64,000 bases of DNA from Escherichia phage EP75, in the sequence record MG748547, one strand, 5' to 3'. A program made the translations under genes and the position numbers. The notes under the pieces are model-generated. The model was not told where the DNA came from. It searched no databases and saw only the letters and a list, made by a program, of their open reading frames with translations. This document shows, in pieces, positions 13,343 to 20,079 of the stretch (positions are counted from its first letter, which is position 1; each line of letters starts with the position of its first letter).

Positions 13343-13864
13343 TTAATTCCTTACTTTGTCTGGGTTGGATAAGATTTGTTCGTATCCGACTTCGCCTTGA
13401 TCGTCGAAAACATGCTGAAGAATCGCCATATCGTCTACCATCCGATAAACTTCAATTCCAGCGTTCATCAATTTTTTGATTCCATCCATGATACGATATG
13501 GCTCTTGATAATATACTTTATCGATCTTGCCGTTGTCGATGATCTTCTGAGTGCAATCAGGGCATGGGCTATGTGTCACAAACATAACCAACCCTGTGAA
13601 ATCATCTGCATTTTCGGGGATACGCATTAGAGCATTTTCCTCCGCATGAATGACACACGGGTTTGTAACAATTTGCCCGTGTTGTTCCATCTCACAAACA
13701 TTCGGCATGCCAGGAGGCGTTCCGTTCCATCCGATAGCCACAGGCTGATCAGTTTCAGGGTTTACGATAACACAACCGACTTGCAGACGCCGAGCATAAC
13801 TGGTTACACCATATGCTGCAGCTGATCGCATATGGGCGAACATCATTCGTGGTTTGATAGCCAT
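13343..13864 (-). CDS. dCMP deaminase (zinc-dependent)
   Basis: 'HAEENAL' and 'SPCPDC' (H-A-E / PCxxC) deaminase zinc motifs. Confidence 0.8.
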   Translation of the reverse strand: MAIKPRMMFAHMRSAAAYGVTSYARRLQVGCVIVNPETDQPVAIGWNGTPPGMPNVCEMEQHGQIVTNPCVIHAEENALMRIPENADDFTGLVMFVTHSPCPDCTQKIIDNGKIDKVYYQEPYRIMDGIKKLMNAGIEVYRMVDDMAILQHVFDDQGEVGYEQILSNPDKVRN

Positions 13865-14181
13865 TATTTTACCAGAGCCTTTTCAAGTAAAAAGATCATG
13901 TCATCCTGGTCGGCGCGGCCAAAGATCTGACCGAGGGACACCATGGAATGAACCTCTTTGACAATCAGGTCTTTGCCTGTTACACCGCTGTTGTCCAATT
14001 CGAGAATTGTAGACATGCGCTCAACCATATGAGGTGGATGATTGATATAACGTTGAAGATACTTTTCACGCAACGCAATTTTTTCGATAAGATCTGACAT
14101 TTCTGCATTCTCTTCTGAATACAGACGTTCTTTAGATTTCAGTTCTTCGAGGCGTTCGTACATTTCTTTTAATGAAATCAT
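13864..14181 (-). CDS. hypothetical protein (about 106 aa)
   Basis: Start re-assigned to ATG 14181 (GGGAGAGA ribosome-binding site) because a terminator hairpin lies inside the longer track ORF. Confidence 0.45.
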   Translation of the reverse strand: MISLKEMYERLEELKSKERLYSEENAEMSDLIEKIALREKYLQRYINHPPHMVERMSTILELDNSGVTGKDLIVKEVHSMVSLGQIFGRADQDDMIFLLEKALVK

Positions 14182-14204
14182 GTTTGTCTCTCCCAATAAA
14201 TTAA

Positions 14205-14223
14205 GGGGAAGTATACCTTCCCC
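14205..14223 (-). terminator. intrinsic terminator hairpin
   Basis: GGGGAAG-GTATAC-CTTCCCC stem-loop followed by T-rich run on minus strand. Confidence 0.6.
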
Positions 14224-14244
14224 TTTCTTCAATAACCTAAAATA

Positions 14245-14595
14245 TTATTCAGTACATGCTTTACCGAGGTCTGTAAGCCTATAGAATGTTACTTCAGACT
14301 TCGGCCAATGCTTATACTCTTCAGAGTTGTCATGAACCATTGTAAACGCAGGTTCTATCAGACCTTTAGACAACAAGGATTGACCTGAACGCGTATCCCA
14401 TGGATCACCCTTTACAGAACGAAACCCGCCAGATATCGGTGGCGCATGAAAAGTCCAAACCGTTTTCCCTTTATCGTTCGTCCAAGATTTGGGATTGAAA
14501 TACCAATGACAAAGGCGTCTGGCTTCACCTTTTTCAAAATTCAACATTCCTAAAAGGACGCAGAGTTGATGTCCTGTGATTCTTGGCTTTTTCAT
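14245..14595 (-). CDS. hypothetical protein (116 aa)
   Basis: ORF co-oriented in operon. Confidence 0.5.
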   Translation of the reverse strand: MKKPRITGHQLCVLLGMLNFEKGEARRLCHWYFNPKSWTNDKGKTVWTFHAPPISGGFRSVKGDPWDTRSGQSLLSKGLIEPAFTMVHDNSEEYKHWPKSEVTFYRLTDLGKACTE

Positions 14596-14963
14596 AATAT
14601 ATCTCTCTTCTTCAACATGCGTTCCACCTCTGGCCAGTTCACGCAGGGGCGATTGGAAACTTCATCCCATACCAGAGGGCAGCCAAGAGCGGCGTCGTCG
14701 ATGTAAACCTGGGCATATGCCTTTGGAGACTCCGTCCAAGTCTTCTGTGATGGGTTTGTATTAACTCCATACAGAGGGATGCCACGGACATGGAACCAGG
14801 TTTTCGCTTGCTCCAATTCCGCACCAGAACGCATCGTGAACAAAATCAGCTGATGCCCTTTGGCAACGAGCCTCTTCAGGCAGGCATCAGCACCGATGTC
14901 CCGCCCGACCTTTGGGTATTCGTGGGTCACACAAGTCCCGTCAAAATCCACTGCAATGATCAT
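14592..14963 (-). CDS. HAD-superfamily hydrolase-like protein
   Basis: N-terminal 'IAVDFDGTC' matches HAD motif I (DxDGT); 'YIDDA' near C-terminus. Confidence 0.5.
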   Translation of the reverse strand: MIIAVDFDGTCVTHEYPKVGRDIGADACLKRLVAKGHQLILFTMRSGAELEQAKTWFHVRGIPLYGVNTNPSQKTWTESPKAYAQVYIDDAALGCPLVWDEVSNRPCVNWPEVERMLKKRDIL

Positions 14964-15292
14964 AAGATCCCCAAGTCAGTAAGGTAACGATAAAACAAGA
15001 TTATAGACAGAAATCCAATTAACACCCAAGACGACAGGATGGGCTTGCAATTTAGCGTAGTCTTTCCATTGGGTATGTTGGGACTTCCAGTAATAACAAC
15101 CGAATCCGTTTTAGCTCTCAGCGTCATGACAGAACCCATGAGGATGATTGGGCGCACATAATGCCCTTCATGATTGCGCTTCACGATACATGGTGAAGAA
15201 AATCGCAGGAACGGATCACCGCTTTTATAACCAAATAACTCGACCTTTTGTATTTCTTCGGGTACTTTCTGACCAGGAAAGAATATTTTCAT
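14960..15292 (-). CDS. hypothetical protein (110 aa)
   Basis: Start/stop overlaps with neighbours. Confidence 0.45.
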
Positions 15293-15849
15293 AGCACAAT
15301 TCCTAAATTTGTGTATAACAACTCAGCCAGGGTTACAGGACGCTTGAATTGTTCCCAACTGCAGTTCAGGTATTCGCGCTCTTCGCGAATATTTTCGTGA
15401 AGATGACCATGGATATTATACGCCCAACGGTCTAATTGATAAGGAACATGTGTTGTCAACACACGGCCAACAGGCGTGTCACGTTCATACATAGCGCCGA
15501 AGGAGCTAATCCAGCCGTCCAGATACAGAGACAACAACATCTTAAAGCTGTCATGGTTGCCTTGTGCCACCCTGATGATAAAGTTCGGACGCCAGTCATC
15601 GGGAACGGGGCGGCGTTTGAACTCATCAATGTTTCGCTTGGCACCCTCTCGCATCAGGCGAATGAACCCTTCAGCCCCGATGAAGCATATATCACCAGCC
15701 AGTTCAAGAACGTCCCGAGACTTCAACCCCTGAAAGATACTGTCAATGACCGCAGCGTCATGGGCTTCCTGTGTATCAAATCCACGCGGTTTAAAGACCT
15801 TCTTATGCCCAAGATGAGTGTCACCAAGGTGCTTTACAATTCCCGCCAT
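15289..15849 (-). CDS. metallophosphoesterase (calcineurin-like)
   Basis: 'GDTHLG', 'GNHD', 'GHLH' motifs; start re-assigned to ATG 15849 (GAGGAAA ribosome-binding site, TAATG overlap). Confidence 0.65.
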
Positions 15850-16190
15850 TATGGTTTCCTCAGCCATTCTAAAATCGGCACTTTCACAAACCCTTTATGC
15901 CAACGATGCGGTTTGTGACCTCTATTATATTCGAGCAAACACGTGTCTGGTGGGACACTGAAGTGGATGCCTTCGATGTCGTAGTAATGTCCGTCAATCA
16001 GAGTATACACATGACCTTCGATCTGGCTGTAATGGATCTCTGCTTGAGGATACACATGCTTCAGAACCAGAGCAACCTGATAGCACTTTCCGTTCTTCCC
16101 AACATACTCAACATCCACCTGTTGTGGGAAGACGTCTTTGATAAGATTTATCAATCTCGTGATGTCATTTACAACAACTGAACGTTTCAT
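15849..16190 (-). CDS. hypothetical protein (113 aa)
   Basis: ORF in operon. Confidence 0.45.
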
Positions 16191-16192
16191 CT

Positions 16193-16855
16193 CTATGATA
16201 ACTCATGGCGATGTCGAACACACGCAGGACAATCACAATTCTTTTTCAAAATTGGCAATTCACACCATGTCATTAAGTCATGTATTGGGGACATGTGATG
16301 ATAGAACCAAGATTTCTTGAGACTAATCAATGGATATAAAATTTCAATAGATCTTTCCCCGTCTCTGGTCATCATGTTGTATCCTTCAATAACTTTATTA
16401 AAGGCGGGTATCCAGTGTATTGCGTCATCGCCGTTAACATATGCCAAGATATACGTGGAAGGCAAGCCACTGCCTTTAAATTGCGTGTTTAATAACCATA
16501 TCGGGGCTTGTGCTAAACAAGCGCGAAAACCACCGTTCGGGACGTTGATGCTACTGATAGGTTCTTGATGATGTGTCCAACGATACATGAGAAGTGGGGC
16601 ATTTTTATTAATCCAGTTGTATATTTTATTCCTCGCCCAATTTTCGCGTTTAGATTTAAATTTATTATTTTCGAGGTGGCAATACACAGTATGAACTGAA
16701 TATCCTTTCGATAGCAACCAAATCAACATGTATGTGCTATCCACCCCACCAGACCAGAACAACGTCACTTCTTGATTATTCTGCGGCAATGGAGCATCCC
16801 CTTGAAGAACACGGTATACAAAATCACAATCAGATATTGAGACAACAATTTCCAT
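16193..16855 (-). CDS. QueC-like PP-loop ATP pyrophosphatase
   Basis: 'LFWSGGVDSTY' PP-loop and C-terminal 'CDCPACVRHR' zinc motif as in QueC. Confidence 0.55.
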   Translation of the reverse strand: MEIVVSISDCDFVYRVLQGDAPLPQNNQEVTLFWSGGVDSTYMLIWLLSKGYSVHTVYCHLENNKFKSKRENWARNKIYNWINKNAPLLMYRWTHHQEPISSINVPNGGFRACLAQAPIWLLNTQFKGSGLPSTYILAYVNGDDAIHWIPAFNKVIEGYNMMTRDGERSIEILYPLISLKKSWFYHHMSPIHDLMTWCELPILKKNCDCPACVRHRHELS

Positions 16856-17151
16856 TAAAATATTCCTCTTAAAGAATCATTTATCCTGCGCAATTCGTTT
16901 TCCACTTTTATCTTCATATTTTTATCGTCGTTCACGAAAATCATTTTATCTAAATCTTCGCCATTAATCTTTGTATAAAAATAAATGTCATGCTCAAAGA
17001 AAATCGTTTTTCCAACAGAACGCATGGCAAAGAACGTTGCAATAGTTCTTGGTAAAGGTTTGAATTTAATGGCATTGAAACGCAAAGCCTGATAGAGAGG
17101 TTTTAATGTTCCTAAGCGAATACAATGCTGGATAATTTCTTGCTCTTTCAT
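16855..17151 (-). CDS. hypothetical protein (98 aa)
   Basis: ORF in operon. Confidence 0.45.
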   Translation of the reverse strand: MKEQEIIQHCIRLGTLKPLYQALRFNAIKFKPLPRTIATFFAMRSVGKTIFFEHDIYFYTKINGEDLDKMIFVNDDKNMKIKVENELRRINDSLRGIF

Positions 17152-17206
17152 TTGTTGTGCGCCATAAAGATATGATGGTACAATGATAATACATTATACA
17201 AATAGA

Positions 17207-17226
17207 AAAGCCCCTTTCGGGGCTTA
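17207..17226 (-). terminator. intrinsic terminator (possibly bidirectional)
   Basis: AGCCCC-TTTC-GGGGCT hairpin flanked by T/A runs on both strands; overlaps the 17224 stop. Confidence 0.6.
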
Positions 17227-17514
17227 TTTGTCTTCAGATTCGTATAAACGCCAATTGCCGATGCTAAACCACTCCCCCACATTATTTGAATATCTGGTTG
17301 TTCGGACTCCTCCGACTTCATACGCCCATTTGAAGAATTTCCATTTGGACGATAAAGAAGGACATTCGCTTCCGGATTTCAAAGAACACGCTGTGAGCCA
17401 ACGCGTAATACTGAGAGCCTGAAAAATCGGATGGATAAATGAAGAATACAATATCCAAAGCGTTATGGCAACAAAAACAATGGTCGTGATCACCCCGACA
17501 ATTTGAAAGAACAT
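17224..17514 (-). CDS. small membrane protein (96 aa)
   Basis: N-terminal hydrophobic helix. Confidence 0.45.
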   Translation of the reverse strand: MFFQIVGVITTIVFVAITLWILYSSFIHPIFQALSITRWLTACSLKSGSECPSLSSKWKFFKWAYEVGGVRTTRYSNNVGEWFSIGNWRLYESEDK

Positions 17515-17590
17515 TTAAGAACCTCCAAAATATTGAACACAGACTATGAAGAAAACTATGATTGTAAACAACCATGAAACAAGGAAAGAT

Positions 17591-18223
17591 TCATCCTTCC
17601 ACCTTCAGCCCCATCAGGTCTTCCATGGTTTTCTGAATGCGTAGCCAGTCAAGCGCCGCATCATAACGAGGGTCATGATAGATCATACCTTCCAGTTCCC
17701 ACGCCTTGATACCAGCATATCGATCCTGCTGCCCAATACCCTTCAGCCAGCTTACGATGTCAAATGTGTGGTGATAGTCCCAAGGTTCGTTGGAATCTTG
17801 CTTACACGTCACCTCAATGATGTGCTGAGCCTTGCGTAGGTCAAACAGATTCCTATCACACCAGTCAACCGATCGCGGGTCGATCCCAAGGCGATGGCAT
17901 CCCTTGCGAATTTCATCGGCCAATTTGAAAATAGAAATATCCTTGTCGGTCGGATATAGACTGATAGCTCGGGCGGCGTCGCACGGGTTGCGTTTACCTG
18001 TACCCAGCCACCATTCCACAGTGCCCTGGTCTTTCACACGGCCAAGTTCAATCTGTTCTTTGACATCCAGTTTGATAAATGTCGTGCGCTCTACAACAAG
18101 CTGCTGAAGAGTATAACGCTTGGTCAGGTCGGCGATAGTCTGTGCCCAAGACAACATGACAGCATCATCCCAACGACCGAGAGTTTCGCTATCAGCGACG
18201 GCCAAGAAATTAGATTTATACAT
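17591..18223 (-). CDS. DEDDh 3'-5' exonuclease (T4 DexA-like), putative
   Basis: 'FLAVADSETLG' (exo motif I) and 'YHDPRYDAAL' (motif III H/D). Confidence 0.55.
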   Translation of the reverse strand: MYKSNFLAVADSETLGRWDDAVMLSWAQTIADLTKRYTLQQLVVERTTFIKLDVKEQIELGRVKDQGTVEWWLGTGKRNPCDAARAISLYPTDKDISIFKLADEIRKGCHRLGIDPRSVDWCDRNLFDLRKAQHIIEVTCKQDSNEPWDYHHTFDIVSWLKGIGQQDRYAGIKAWELEGMIYHDPRYDAALDWLRIQKTMEDLMGLKVEG

Positions 18224-18560
18224 CAGTTTCCCCTGCTTTCTCTAAAAGGAGTTTCAAAGGATATGTCCCACAAGCGGTGGCATACTCGACTTTGAAATAT
18301 GAATTATCGTTCATGGCGAAATTGCGATGTGGGAAATATTCCCCGTCATCCAACCCGCCTAATCCCCCGCCGACGCGATATTGTTTTAACTCGACTTCGC
18401 CGCCATAACGGAGTTGGGCATATAGGCCGATAGGAGCGCGAACGTAATGCTCCAGCCATACCCAATTTCCATCGTGTAAACGTGTAGGGATAAATGCAAA
18501 ACGCACCTTGGGATGAAGAACGGCTTTGGCGAGCATCTCTTCTGTTATTTCACGCTTCAT
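18216..18560 (-). CDS. hypothetical protein (114 aa)
   Basis: ORF in operon. Confidence 0.45.
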   Translation of the reverse strand: MKREITEEMLAKAVLHPKVRFAFIPTRLHDGNWVWLEHYVRAPIGLYAQLRYGGEVELKQYRVGGGLGGLDDGEYFPHRNFAMNDNSYFKVEYATACGTYPLKLLLEKAGETDV

Positions 18561-19177
18561 CCAATACCTTCCTCTTCGATGATATCTTCTTCACTAGCGA
18601 CGACAGAGATTCCGTAGTCTACCATCTGGGAAAGTTCTTGTAAATCTTGTTCAAACCCGTCACCCTGTCGGATATAAAAGACGGGTACGACACGACGCCT
18701 GGTATCTTCGAAGATAGTCTCCGCGATTTTATTAATCTGACTCACCACGTGAAACAGTTTTAATCCACCGATGCCACAGCCGATGGCGGGTAAACCAACA
18801 TAGACTGTTTCGTCAGTTTTTGCCTCAATGATATCGTGAACTTGTTCAAACATAATCTGAACTGAACTGATAATGGAAGGCATGCGTGCGTTAGGACCAG
18901 GGTAGAACTGAGTATACAAATTGAATCCCCAGACACCAGTGTCATGATCAAACGCATAGGACATGTTCCCCAAACGTTGTTCCGGACCACGTTCATCTAA
19001 TTGGTCGGCTCGGTAAATTTCTGGGAAATCTAATCGAACATGGTTGGCGATACCTGCGCCCATCACAGACCAACAATTTGCTCCATGAGCGAAAGCATTG
19101 ATGAGATTAAAACTCGTAGCGGCTTTCAGTAAATCGCCGTTTGTGATAACATATGTGGTCATGCGTAACGTCTCCAT
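18557..19177 (-). CDS. macro domain protein (ADP-ribose binding/hydrolase), putative
   Basis: 'VITNGDLL...INAFAHGAN..MGAGIA' and 'GLPAIGCGIGGL' resemble macro domain signature motifs. Confidence 0.55.
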   Translation of the reverse strand: METLRMTTYVITNGDLLKAATSFNLINAFAHGANCWSVMGAGIANHVRLDFPEIYRADQLDERGPEQRLGNMSYAFDHDTGVWGFNLYTQFYPGPNARMPSIISSVQIMFEQVHDIIEAKTDETVYVGLPAIGCGIGGLKLFHVVSQINKIAETIFEDTRRRVVPVFYIRQGDGFEQDLQELSQMVDYGISVVASEEDIIEEEGIG

Positions 19178-19665: not shown

Positions 19666-20079
19666 TCAATAGAGGTCTTCGGAAAAGAGTTCTTTGAAAG
19701 GAGTGTTCTTCAAACGGACCTGATTAGTTTGTCCGGCTTCACGAGCGACCACAGCAGCCTCTTCACGGGACATCCATTGCCCATAGTTATCAATAAACCC
19801 TTGTTCACGAGTGTGGGTGGTTTCGATAATACCTGCTTCCTTCAATCGTTTGAGTTGCGTGTTCATCAATTTGTCGTGATGTCGGGCGCTTACAACGATC
19901 ACATCACCATATTTGTTGGCAGCAGCCACAACACGCCGATCAAACTTGGTTGGGTCAGGTATATCACGAGTATACAAGGCGATGTGAGTGTCGTCCACGT
20001 CCCCTTTCACCTCAGAATATAACTGACACCCATTAGGAGATCCAGTAGGTAAAGAACGAAAATATCCAAGTAATTTCAT
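19666..20079 (-). CDS. hypothetical protein (137 aa)
   Basis: ORF in operon; no confident motif. Confidence 0.45.
   Translation of the reverse strand: MKLLGYFRSLPTGSPNGCQLYSEVKGDVDDTHIALYTRDIPDPTKFDRRVVAAANKYGDVIVVSARHHDKLMNTQLKRLKEAGIIETTHTREQGFIDNYGQWMSREEAAVVAREAGQTNQVRLKNTPFKELFSEDLY

Follow-up and report, generated by a model that had tools for sequence, protein, structure and literature searches.

A QueC-like orphan of a ViI-like phage is predicted to be a divergent PP-loop ATP pyrophosphatase from a largely viral branch of the QueC/Cap9 fold

Results

The QueC-like gene

The subject of this study is one gene in a stretch of 64,000 nucleotides from Escherichia phage EP75 (record MG748547), which in its entirety is referred to as the window. 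An open reading frame (ORF) of 220 amino acids with an ATG start occupies positions 16193..16855 on the minus strand, exactly the limits given in an initial annotation that was made from the sequence alone and that described the product as an orphan QueC-like PP-loop ATPase. From its motifs and its profile and fold matches, the coding sequence is assigned here to a putative divergent PP-loop ATP pyrophosphatase with the QueC/Cap9 fold. The window belongs to a Kuttervirus, a ViI-like phage of the Ackermannviridae; the region 14000-19000 is 99.8% identical to the Salmonella phages rabagast, aagejoakim and S115 and is matched by 204 phage records. The start codon overlaps the stop codon of the preceding gene as TAATG, and a Shine-Dalgarno sequence, AAGAGG (16865..16870, minus strand), is located 9 nt 5' of the ATG. 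The gene lies within a compact block of seven leftward genes with a terminator-like hairpin at each border. The ratio of nonsynonymous to synonymous substitution rates between Kuttervirus isolates was 0.03-0.2, indicating purifying selection, and a homologue in phage Sajous1 has been found by mass spectrometry (PMC10892097). Between genera of the Ackermannviridae the protein is 55-65% identical, compared with ∼90% for neighbors such as DexA.

Membership of the QueC superfamily

The protein matched PHROG 1550, "QueC-like queuosine biosynthesis", with an E value of 9e-82, which accounts for the annotation of the gene as QueC-like in RefSeq. Comparison by hhalign of the protein family with a profile of five QueC sequences gave a probability of 98.1% (E 6.6e-14) over 181 columns extending from the PP-loop through the zinc motif, and a profile-profile comparison of the same type with E. 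coli QueC gave 94%. The Pfam QueC model (PF06508) scored 23.7 bits on the window protein against a cutoff of 22, covering the PP-loop region only, and was the best model for 90 of 92 diverse family members. A sequence search of the PDB returned matches at the level of the PP-loop only. The AlphaFold2 model of the window protein, built with 20 homologues, had a predicted local distance difference test score (pLDDT) of 85.6 and a predicted template modeling score of 0.87, residues 141-143 being the sole part with a pLDDT below 50. The best fold matches to this model were Cap9 and QueC, with Cap9 first by two methods.

The initial annotation had rested on an SGGVDS PP-loop and a C-terminal zinc motif, both of which were found. 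The PP-loop (residues 35-40; 16736..16753, minus strand) is the ATP pyrophosphate-binding motif, of which G37, D39 and S40 are invariant in an alignment of the 92 family members and S35 and G36 are conserved in at least 94%. The presumed zinc site, CELPILKKNCDCPAC (residues 198-212; 16220..16264, minus strand), has the arrangement C198-E199...C207-x-C209-x2-C212. Its cysteine spacing is C-x8-C-x-C-x2-C versus C-x8-C-x2-C-x2-C in canonical QueC, although all four cysteines align with C188, C197, C200 and C203 of QueC, the second being displaced by one residue. K181 (16313..16315, minus strand), the invariant equivalent of K165 of QueC in the alignments, completes a set that, with the PP-loop and the four zinc cysteines, is at or near 100% across the family. 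The significant profile and predicted-fold similarity over the full domain confirms, at the level of sequence and model, that the window protein is a true member of the QueC superfamily (the PF06508, or QueC-Cap9, fold) and that the motif matches are not due to chance. The comparisons also support the view that no non-QueC PP-loop family fits the protein better: none that aligned better was found, and the closest models and folds were those of QueC and Cap9.

Replacement of the substrate-binding residues

Libby et al. 2026 describe the canonical QueC signature as SGGxDS, YxQxHxxE, VPxRN, YPDC, K165 and C-x8-C-x2-C-x2-C, and report that E. coli QueC is inactivated by any one of the substitutions Y35A, R99A, Y131A and Y189A (PMC13329287). 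The Tyr of the YPDC motif stacks on the deazaguanine and the Asp reads N1 and N2. In Cap9, Y115 and D117 (Y129 and D131 of Bacillus subtilis QueC) stack on or hydrogen-bond with 7-deazaguanine, along with R86 (PMC13279940). The states of the corresponding residues were scored in the 92-member alignment, and two profile alignments to QueC were compared.

In place of YxQxHxxE the family has the motif N63-N64...K67...E71 (16643..16669, minus strand), with N63 in 83, N64 in 85 and E71 in 90 of the 92 members. The Y35 column is Ile or Leu in the family and L61 in the window protein, or N64 in the other alignment; Q37 and H39 are not retained, and at most the Glu is kept as E71. The position of R99 is taken in one alignment by Q116 (16508..16510, minus strand; 84/92), R99 and N100 being deleted in the other, and N100 of VPxRN is not kept in the family. 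The substrate loop D-F-S-G-Y-P-D-C is replaced by the segment Y139-V-N-G-D143-D144-A...W148 (16412..16441, minus strand), with Y139 and D143 invariant and an aromatic residue at position 148 in 88 members. The Asp of YPDC (D133) corresponds to P150 or W148 in the window protein, depending on the alignment, and the Cys (C134) is absent. The Y189 column holds E199 in the window protein and Glu in 89/92, as in the "CE" motif of Cap9. The family thus has a conserved set of its own, comprised of N63-N64, E71, Q116, Y139 and D143. Consistent with these replacements, the window protein scored 17.8 bits on the NCBIfam QueC equivalog model TIGR00364, for which the cutoff is 150.3. Since the residues that hold 7-carboxy-7-deazaguanine (CDG) in QueC and Cap9 are replaced, the protein is predicted not to be a synthase of 7-cyano-7-deazaguanine (preQ0) and not to take part in the 7-deazaguanine pathway.

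Divergence of the substrate pocket, together with the faster evolution of the protein relative to DexA between genera, could be read as the decay of a once catalytic enzyme into a remnant kept for a structural or binding role. This is extremely improbable given that more than 90 distant members share an invariant PP-loop, Lys and set of zinc cysteines, that the family has new invariant residues of its own (Y139 and D143), and that purifying selection on the gene is strong.

A largely viral family

In an exhaustive search, the family profile was compared with 1.84 billion representative proteins, giving 1154 clusters at a threshold of E≤1e-3, of which 478 also reached E≤1e-10. With few exceptions, the clusters are 180-320 amino acids in length with full-length matches. 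Canonical QueCs were not among these clusters, and QueC from the PDB scored ∼16 bits against the family profile. At least 114 relatives were detected in IMG/VR on very diverse contigs, several of jumbo-phage size. Among isolates, the family was present in the genera of Ackermannviridae sampled, including Kuttervirus and the Vibrio phage genus Campanilevirus, and in the jumbo-phage lineages PA1C/PS119XW, Noxifer, RSL2/RSF1, Erwinia pEa_SNUABM_54 and Burkholderia SURPRISE13. A fold search of BFVD returned the same family only.

The scan of cellular genomes covered 185,579 species of bacteria and archaea, each represented by a single genome. Zero loci were returned with the Kuttervirus sequence as confirming reference, a result of the divergence of that sequence; with a typical member as reference 11 loci were returned, all of them in metagenome-assembled genomes (MAGs) or metagenome assemblies. 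In two syntenic loci from Verrucomicrobia MAGs (L090 and L091) an isolated family gene stands beside a divergently transcribed extracytoplasmic function sigma factor and a Ser/Thr kinase, as judged by eye. Another copy, on a 4.2-Mb metagenome-assembled chromosome (L089; OW818669.1), lies between what by eye are apparent IS3-type transposases. The family is overwhelmingly viral and nearly absent from cellular genomes.

Two contigs of uncultivated phages, L019 and L039, each carry a canonical QueC that passes TIGR00364 and has all of the classical motifs and, ∼7 kb away, a divergent family member. The pairs, recognized with TIGR00364 and the motifs, are located at 423-1220 and 8004-8759 of L019 and at 1428-2231 and 7998-8708 of L039, the canonical gene being named first. 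As a control, TIGR00364 gave 152.1 bits for the canonical QueC of L019, which passes the cutoff, and 27.1 bits for the family member. Genes for RecA, FEN, DnaB and, by eye, an SSB-like protein lie between the two members of each pair, and no QueD, QueE, FolE or DpdA was found within the 16 kb of these loci examined. Since both proteins occur in one phage, the canonical and divergent paralogues are unlikely to be redundant.

Search for pathway partners

The initial annotation based the term orphan on the lack of FolE, QueD, QueE and DpdA in the window. This lack was confirmed and was extended to a whole genome by use of the complete sister phage aagejoakim (NC_049503, 156.8 kb), which is near-identical to the window. 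No GTP cyclohydrolase I (FolE), QueD, QueE, DpdA or tRNA-guanine transglycosylase (TGT) is annotated in NC_049503 (PHROG-based RefSeq annotation). Searches by phmmer with DpdA, FolE, QueD, Gat-QueC and QueE of phage 9g gave zero matches at E≤1 among all six-frame ORFs of at least 40 amino acids from the window and NC_049503. A complete preQ0/DpdA cluster elsewhere in the genome, which would have overturned the initial annotation, was therefore found neither in the window nor in the 156.8-kb sister genome.

The orphan status of ViI-like QueC-like genes was already published in 2019, when Hutinet et al. noted singleton QueC-like genes in SFP10, ECML-4, SP-15 and Muddy, proposed that they represent another subfamily of N-type ATP pyrophosphatases and left them out of the analysis (PMC6884629). 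That paper did not give the extent of the family, its motif set, its restriction to viruses, its genomic context or its coexistence with QueC. SFP10 carries the same gene as the window at the syntenic place. ECML-4 is presumably ViI-like, and its QueC-like gene may be the same as that of the window. No functional work on phage PP-loop or QueC-like orphans was found in the literature.

The composition of ViI-like DNA further constrains the function. In virion DNA of ViI, CBA120 and CBA6 the sole non-canonical nucleoside is 5-(2-aminoethoxy)methyl-2'-deoxyuridine (5-NeOmdU) (PMC5889632), and the ViI pathway to 5-NeOmdU has been reconstituted with the five gene products gp67, gp160, gp226, gp243 and gp247 (PMC8989533). 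A role for the QueC-like enzyme in this pathway was rejected, as the reconstituted pathway needs no PP-loop enzyme. The published liquid chromatography-mass spectrometry speaks against the presence in ViI-like virions of an abundant additional DNA base and, since the one extra nucleoside is made without the QueC-like enzyme, this enzyme is not expected to make an abundant DNA base in these phages.

These results bear on the possibility that the protein is a genuine, if divergent, QueC that converts CDG made by the host to preQ0, either raising queuosine in the phage tRNA-Tyr(GUA) and tRNA-Asn(GUU) or feeding DNA modification. The Salmonella host makes CDG, and the tRNAs for Tyr and Asn, both encoded in the window, are two of the four tRNAs modified with queuosine at position 34. 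The QueC fold, the zinc motif and the marginally passed Pfam cutoff are in agreement with such an activity. Nonetheless it is very unlikely, since the protein has lost the essential Y35, R99 and Y189 as well as the Asp that partners Y131, and the TIGR00364 score is 17.8 versus 150.3 bits. Moreover, the host already has a QueC, L019 and L039 carry a canonical QueC besides the family member, the genome has no DpdA or Tgt, and ViI virion DNA has 5-NeOmdU as its only extra nucleoside.

Genomic context

All neighboring ORFs were clustered in 69 loci. In a large uncultivated clade the order is fixed as a 137-residue ORF, an SNF2 helicase, a 120-residue ORF, the QueC-like gene, a family B DNA polymerase and, further on, a Nudix gene. 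In other lineages the family gene adjoins SSB-like (by eye), RecA/UvsX-like, FEN or DnaB genes, or precedes an SNF2 helicase. Pfam confirmed these labels, the SSB-like one excepted. The recurring setting of the family is consistent with a module for replication, recombination and nucleotide metabolism, present in several gene orders.

A conserved protein of 120 residues with no Pfam match is encoded between the SNF2 helicase and the QueC-like gene in 27 loci of the uncultivated clade (among them L020, L033, L040, L047 and L051; for example, L051:4514-4876). Its gene directly precedes the QueC-like gene, and the protein is a candidate functional partner. A gene for dCMP/dCTP deaminase is close by in about seven lineages, including the window (13343-13864), and was rejected as a specific partner since so few lineages indicate shared membership of a module rather than partnership. 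A HAD-like protein of 123 residues annotated in RefSeq as "phosphoheptose isomerase" (14592-14963, minus strand; DFDGT motif) also has counterparts near the family gene in RSF1, L019, L049 and L083; most Kuttervirus loci that have retained the QueC-like gene lack it and, as it is present in only 8 of 82 loci, it was dismissed as an obligate partner. A gene at 19666-20079 (minus strand, 137 residues), annotated in relatives as a "C-N hydrolase superfamily protein", was considered as a glutaminase partner and discarded, as Pfam gave no match for it at E≤0.01 and its length does not suffice for the nitrilase fold; the annotation looks unfounded. Adjacent small ORFs were also considered as substrates of the Cap9 or QatB type with an N-terminal Gly, and were rejected on the grounds that the upstream gene of 98 residues is not conserved even within the Ackermannviridae and that the N-termini do not have Gly at position 2.

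The block that contains the QueC-like gene in the window is made up of small early-type ORFans, and the neighbors include the 98-residue ORFan, a YunG-like protein, an annotated serine/threonine phosphatase, a DUF7618 protein and the HAD-like protein. The annotated phosphatase (15289-15867, minus strand, 192 residues) displays by eye the calcineurin-type metallophosphoesterase motifs GDTHLG, GDxxF, GNHD and HGHLH, with no Pfam match at E≤0.01. The hairpin at the 5' border of the block (17208..17225), identified by consensus match only, lies between ORFs of 96 and 98 residues upstream of the QueC-like gene. It consists of AAGCCCC-GAAA-GGGGCTT, a perfect GC-rich stem of 7 bp followed by T-rich sequence on both strands, and looks like a bidirectional terminator. 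The hairpin downstream of the seven genes (14203..14225, minus strand) has a 9-bp stem and is likewise a consensus match only. A tRNA cluster at 51918-52733 (minus strand), ∼35 kb from the QueC-like gene and with no established link to it, encodes tRNA-Tyr(GUA), tRNA-Asn(GUU) and a tRNA with a CAU anticodon. The latter could be a tRNA for Met, or for Ile2 that needs lysidine, made by the PP-loop enzyme TilS.

Comparison with characterized PP-loop enzymes

The window protein and canonical QueC have in common the Rossmann-like PP-loop fold, a similar size, SGGxDS, the Lys (K165/K181) and a C-terminal four-Cys zinc site of equal span. They differ in that canonical QueC has Y35, Q37, H39, R99/N100, the P-D-C of YPDC and Y189, none of which is found in the window protein, and in that the window protein fails TIGR00364, has no linkage to queD, queE or folE, and belongs to a family with which canonical QueC co-occurs on some phage contigs.

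Cap9, the N-terminal deazaguanylase of type IV cyclic oligonucleotide-based antiphage signaling systems (CBASS; PDB 9NTO), keeps the CDG-binding residues Y/FxQ, RN and YxDC, and the window protein does not. R86 and Y115-x-D117 of Cap9 occupy the same columns as R99, Y131 and D133 of QueC, so that the CDG-binding residues of both enzymes have no match in the window protein. The "CE" motif of Cap9 has been described (PMC13329287), and a Glu after the first zinc Cys is common to Cap9 and the family of the window protein. The operon of Cap9 includes a CD-NTase and the TGT-like Cap10, none of which is annotated in the sister genome, the neighbors in the window being DUF7618, YunG-like and ORFan proteins. 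Cap9 is bacterial whereas the family described here is viral. Family members matched the Cap9-type "QueC" model of PADLOC over nearly their full length; since canonical E. coli QueC scores equally on that model, the match indicates no specific affinity of the family to Cap9.

QatC is a precedent for a protein with the QueC fold that keeps the PP-loop and a variant zinc motif while replacing the Y-x-D pair for recognition of CDG, and the replacement of the Y115/D117 equivalents in QatC has been taken as a sign of a different substrate (PMC13279940). Unlike the window protein, QatC has ∼400 residues, N- and C-terminal extensions, motifs of its own and an operon with QatA, QatB and QatD. The QatC models of PADLOC and NCBIfam did not match the 220-residue window protein, and no ATPase or TatD was found among its neighbors.

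The window protein could itself be a protein modifier like Cap9 or QatC that attaches a nucleobase-like acid to the N-terminus of a protein, or else a counter-defense enzyme that consumes, mis-conjugates or sequesters the substrate or target of CDG-dependent immunity (type IV CBASS and QatABCD). Two methods rank Cap9 first among the structural matches, Cap9 has the "CE" signature in common with the family, the Cap9-type PADLOC model covers the members nearly in full, the family is almost exclusively viral, and the window gene stands among small early-type ORFans. Against this, the equivalents of R86 and D117 of Cap9 are absent, the PADLOC model gives E. coli QueC an equally good score, and the search for a conserved small neighbor with an N-terminal Gly was negative. 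The syntenic position between the SNF2 helicase and the family B polymerase in the large clade has the look of a core replication module rather than of a variable anti-defense gene, and the papers on Qat and Cap9 report no phage antagonist. This alternative is therefore considered unlikely.

Unlike the window protein, the sulfurtransferases ThiI, TtuA/NcsA and LarE carry accessory domains or domains for RNA binding, together with a three-Cys [4Fe-4S] site or a persulfide Cys. The comparison is relevant to a further alternative, in which the protein would modify bases of RNA or DNA by adenylating a ring carbonyl as a step before thiolation or amination, on the pattern of ThiI, TtuA, NcsA, TilS and YcfA. 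This seems quite unlikely. Cap9 and QueC gave stronger matches than such enzymes, for which similarity at the sequence level was confined to the PP-loop; the core of ∼180 residues has no THUMP or other RNA-binding domain, and longer members have no such fusions. The four-Cys site aligns with the structural zinc site of QueC and not with the three-Cys Fe-S site of thiolases, and ViI-like DNA has no second abundant modified nucleoside.

Discussion

The results are best explained if the gene encodes a catalytically competent, zinc-binding PP-loop ATP pyrophosphatase that belongs to a deep, almost exclusively viral branch of the QueC/Cap9 superfamily and acts on a substrate other than CDG, an explanation which, judged from sequence comparison, is probably correct. 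The protein keeps the chemistry module, comprised of the SGGxDS ATP site, the Lys equivalent to K165 and the C-terminal four-Cys site, with the CDG pocket rebuilt. In the proposed mechanism, the enzyme would bind ATP-Mg and adenylate an oxygen (of a carboxylate or a lactam carbonyl) of the non-CDG substrate with release of pyrophosphate, after which an amine or ammonia would displace AMP. Such an enzyme would be an amide-forming ligase or amidotransferase, as are Cap9 and the first step of QueC. The leaning toward a ligase or amidotransferase is based on the Glu after the first zinc Cys, which resembles the ligase Cap9 and not the nitrile-forming QueC, and on the minimal core. Since this core of ∼180 residues has no RNA-binding domains, the substrate may be a small molecule, a nucleotide or a peptide terminus rather than tRNA. 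The consistent placement among genes for replication, recombination and nucleotide metabolism suggests biology linked to replication or to nucleic-acid precursors. The proposal of the initial annotation that a lone QueC-like enzyme performs a different ATP-dependent amidation or ligation gains support from the remodeled pocket, from the failure of TIGR00364 and from the occurrence of canonical QueC and family paralogues on single contigs. The targets put forward there, a modified base or an anti-defense function, are speculative.

Several observations weigh against this explanation. The two profile alignments differ in local register around YPDC, for which reason the Asp and Cys of the motif, but not the aromatic residue, were counted as lost. 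In one of the alignments the aromatic (W148; 88/92) may hold the stacking position of the Tyr, and in about one third of the family the column aligned with D133 holds Asp or Glu. The aromatic and acidic residues would be compatible with a planar, base-like or even deazaguanine-like substrate for the family at large. The window protein is formally above the Pfam QueC cutoff (23.7 versus 22 bits) and, since the host makes CDG, missing phage partners are by themselves compatible with its use. No universal partner gene was found across the loci compared, and no informative domain fusions were found in the long family members. Finally, the substrate and the nucleophile proposed for the enzyme are guesses.

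What is new here is the large, near-virus-only branch placed in replication modules, the failure of residue-level tests for both QueC and Cap9, and the coexistence with canonical QueC. One consequence concerns annotation. The label "QueC-like queuosine biosynthesis" is attached to hundreds of Kuttervirus genomes that are candidates for therapy, and it is no evidence for 7-deazaguanine DNA or for queuosine metabolism in these phages. The gene is amenable to testing, given tractable phages and hosts and a small protein that looks soluble.

Cap9 and QatC were recently shown to act in anti-phage immunity by attaching a nucleobase to proteins, which establishes that the QueC fold does more than make preQ0. 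A speculative extension of the present results, to which we assign a low probability, is that the family is a third, virus-exclusive lineage of this fold beside QueC and the immune ligases Cap9 and QatC. It would perform an undescribed ATP-dependent conjugation in phage replication, perhaps coupling an amine or a protein terminus to a heterocyclic or nucleotide acid that is not a deazaguanine, or it would disarm CDG-dependent immunity of the type IV CBASS and QatABCD kinds. A branch with an intact ATP site and a rebuilt pocket recurs in replication modules of the Ackermannviridae, several jumbo-phage lineages and many uncultivated phages. The size of this branch, the constraint upon it and its near restriction to viruses suggest that phages use the chemistry of the QueC fold for something yet undescribed.

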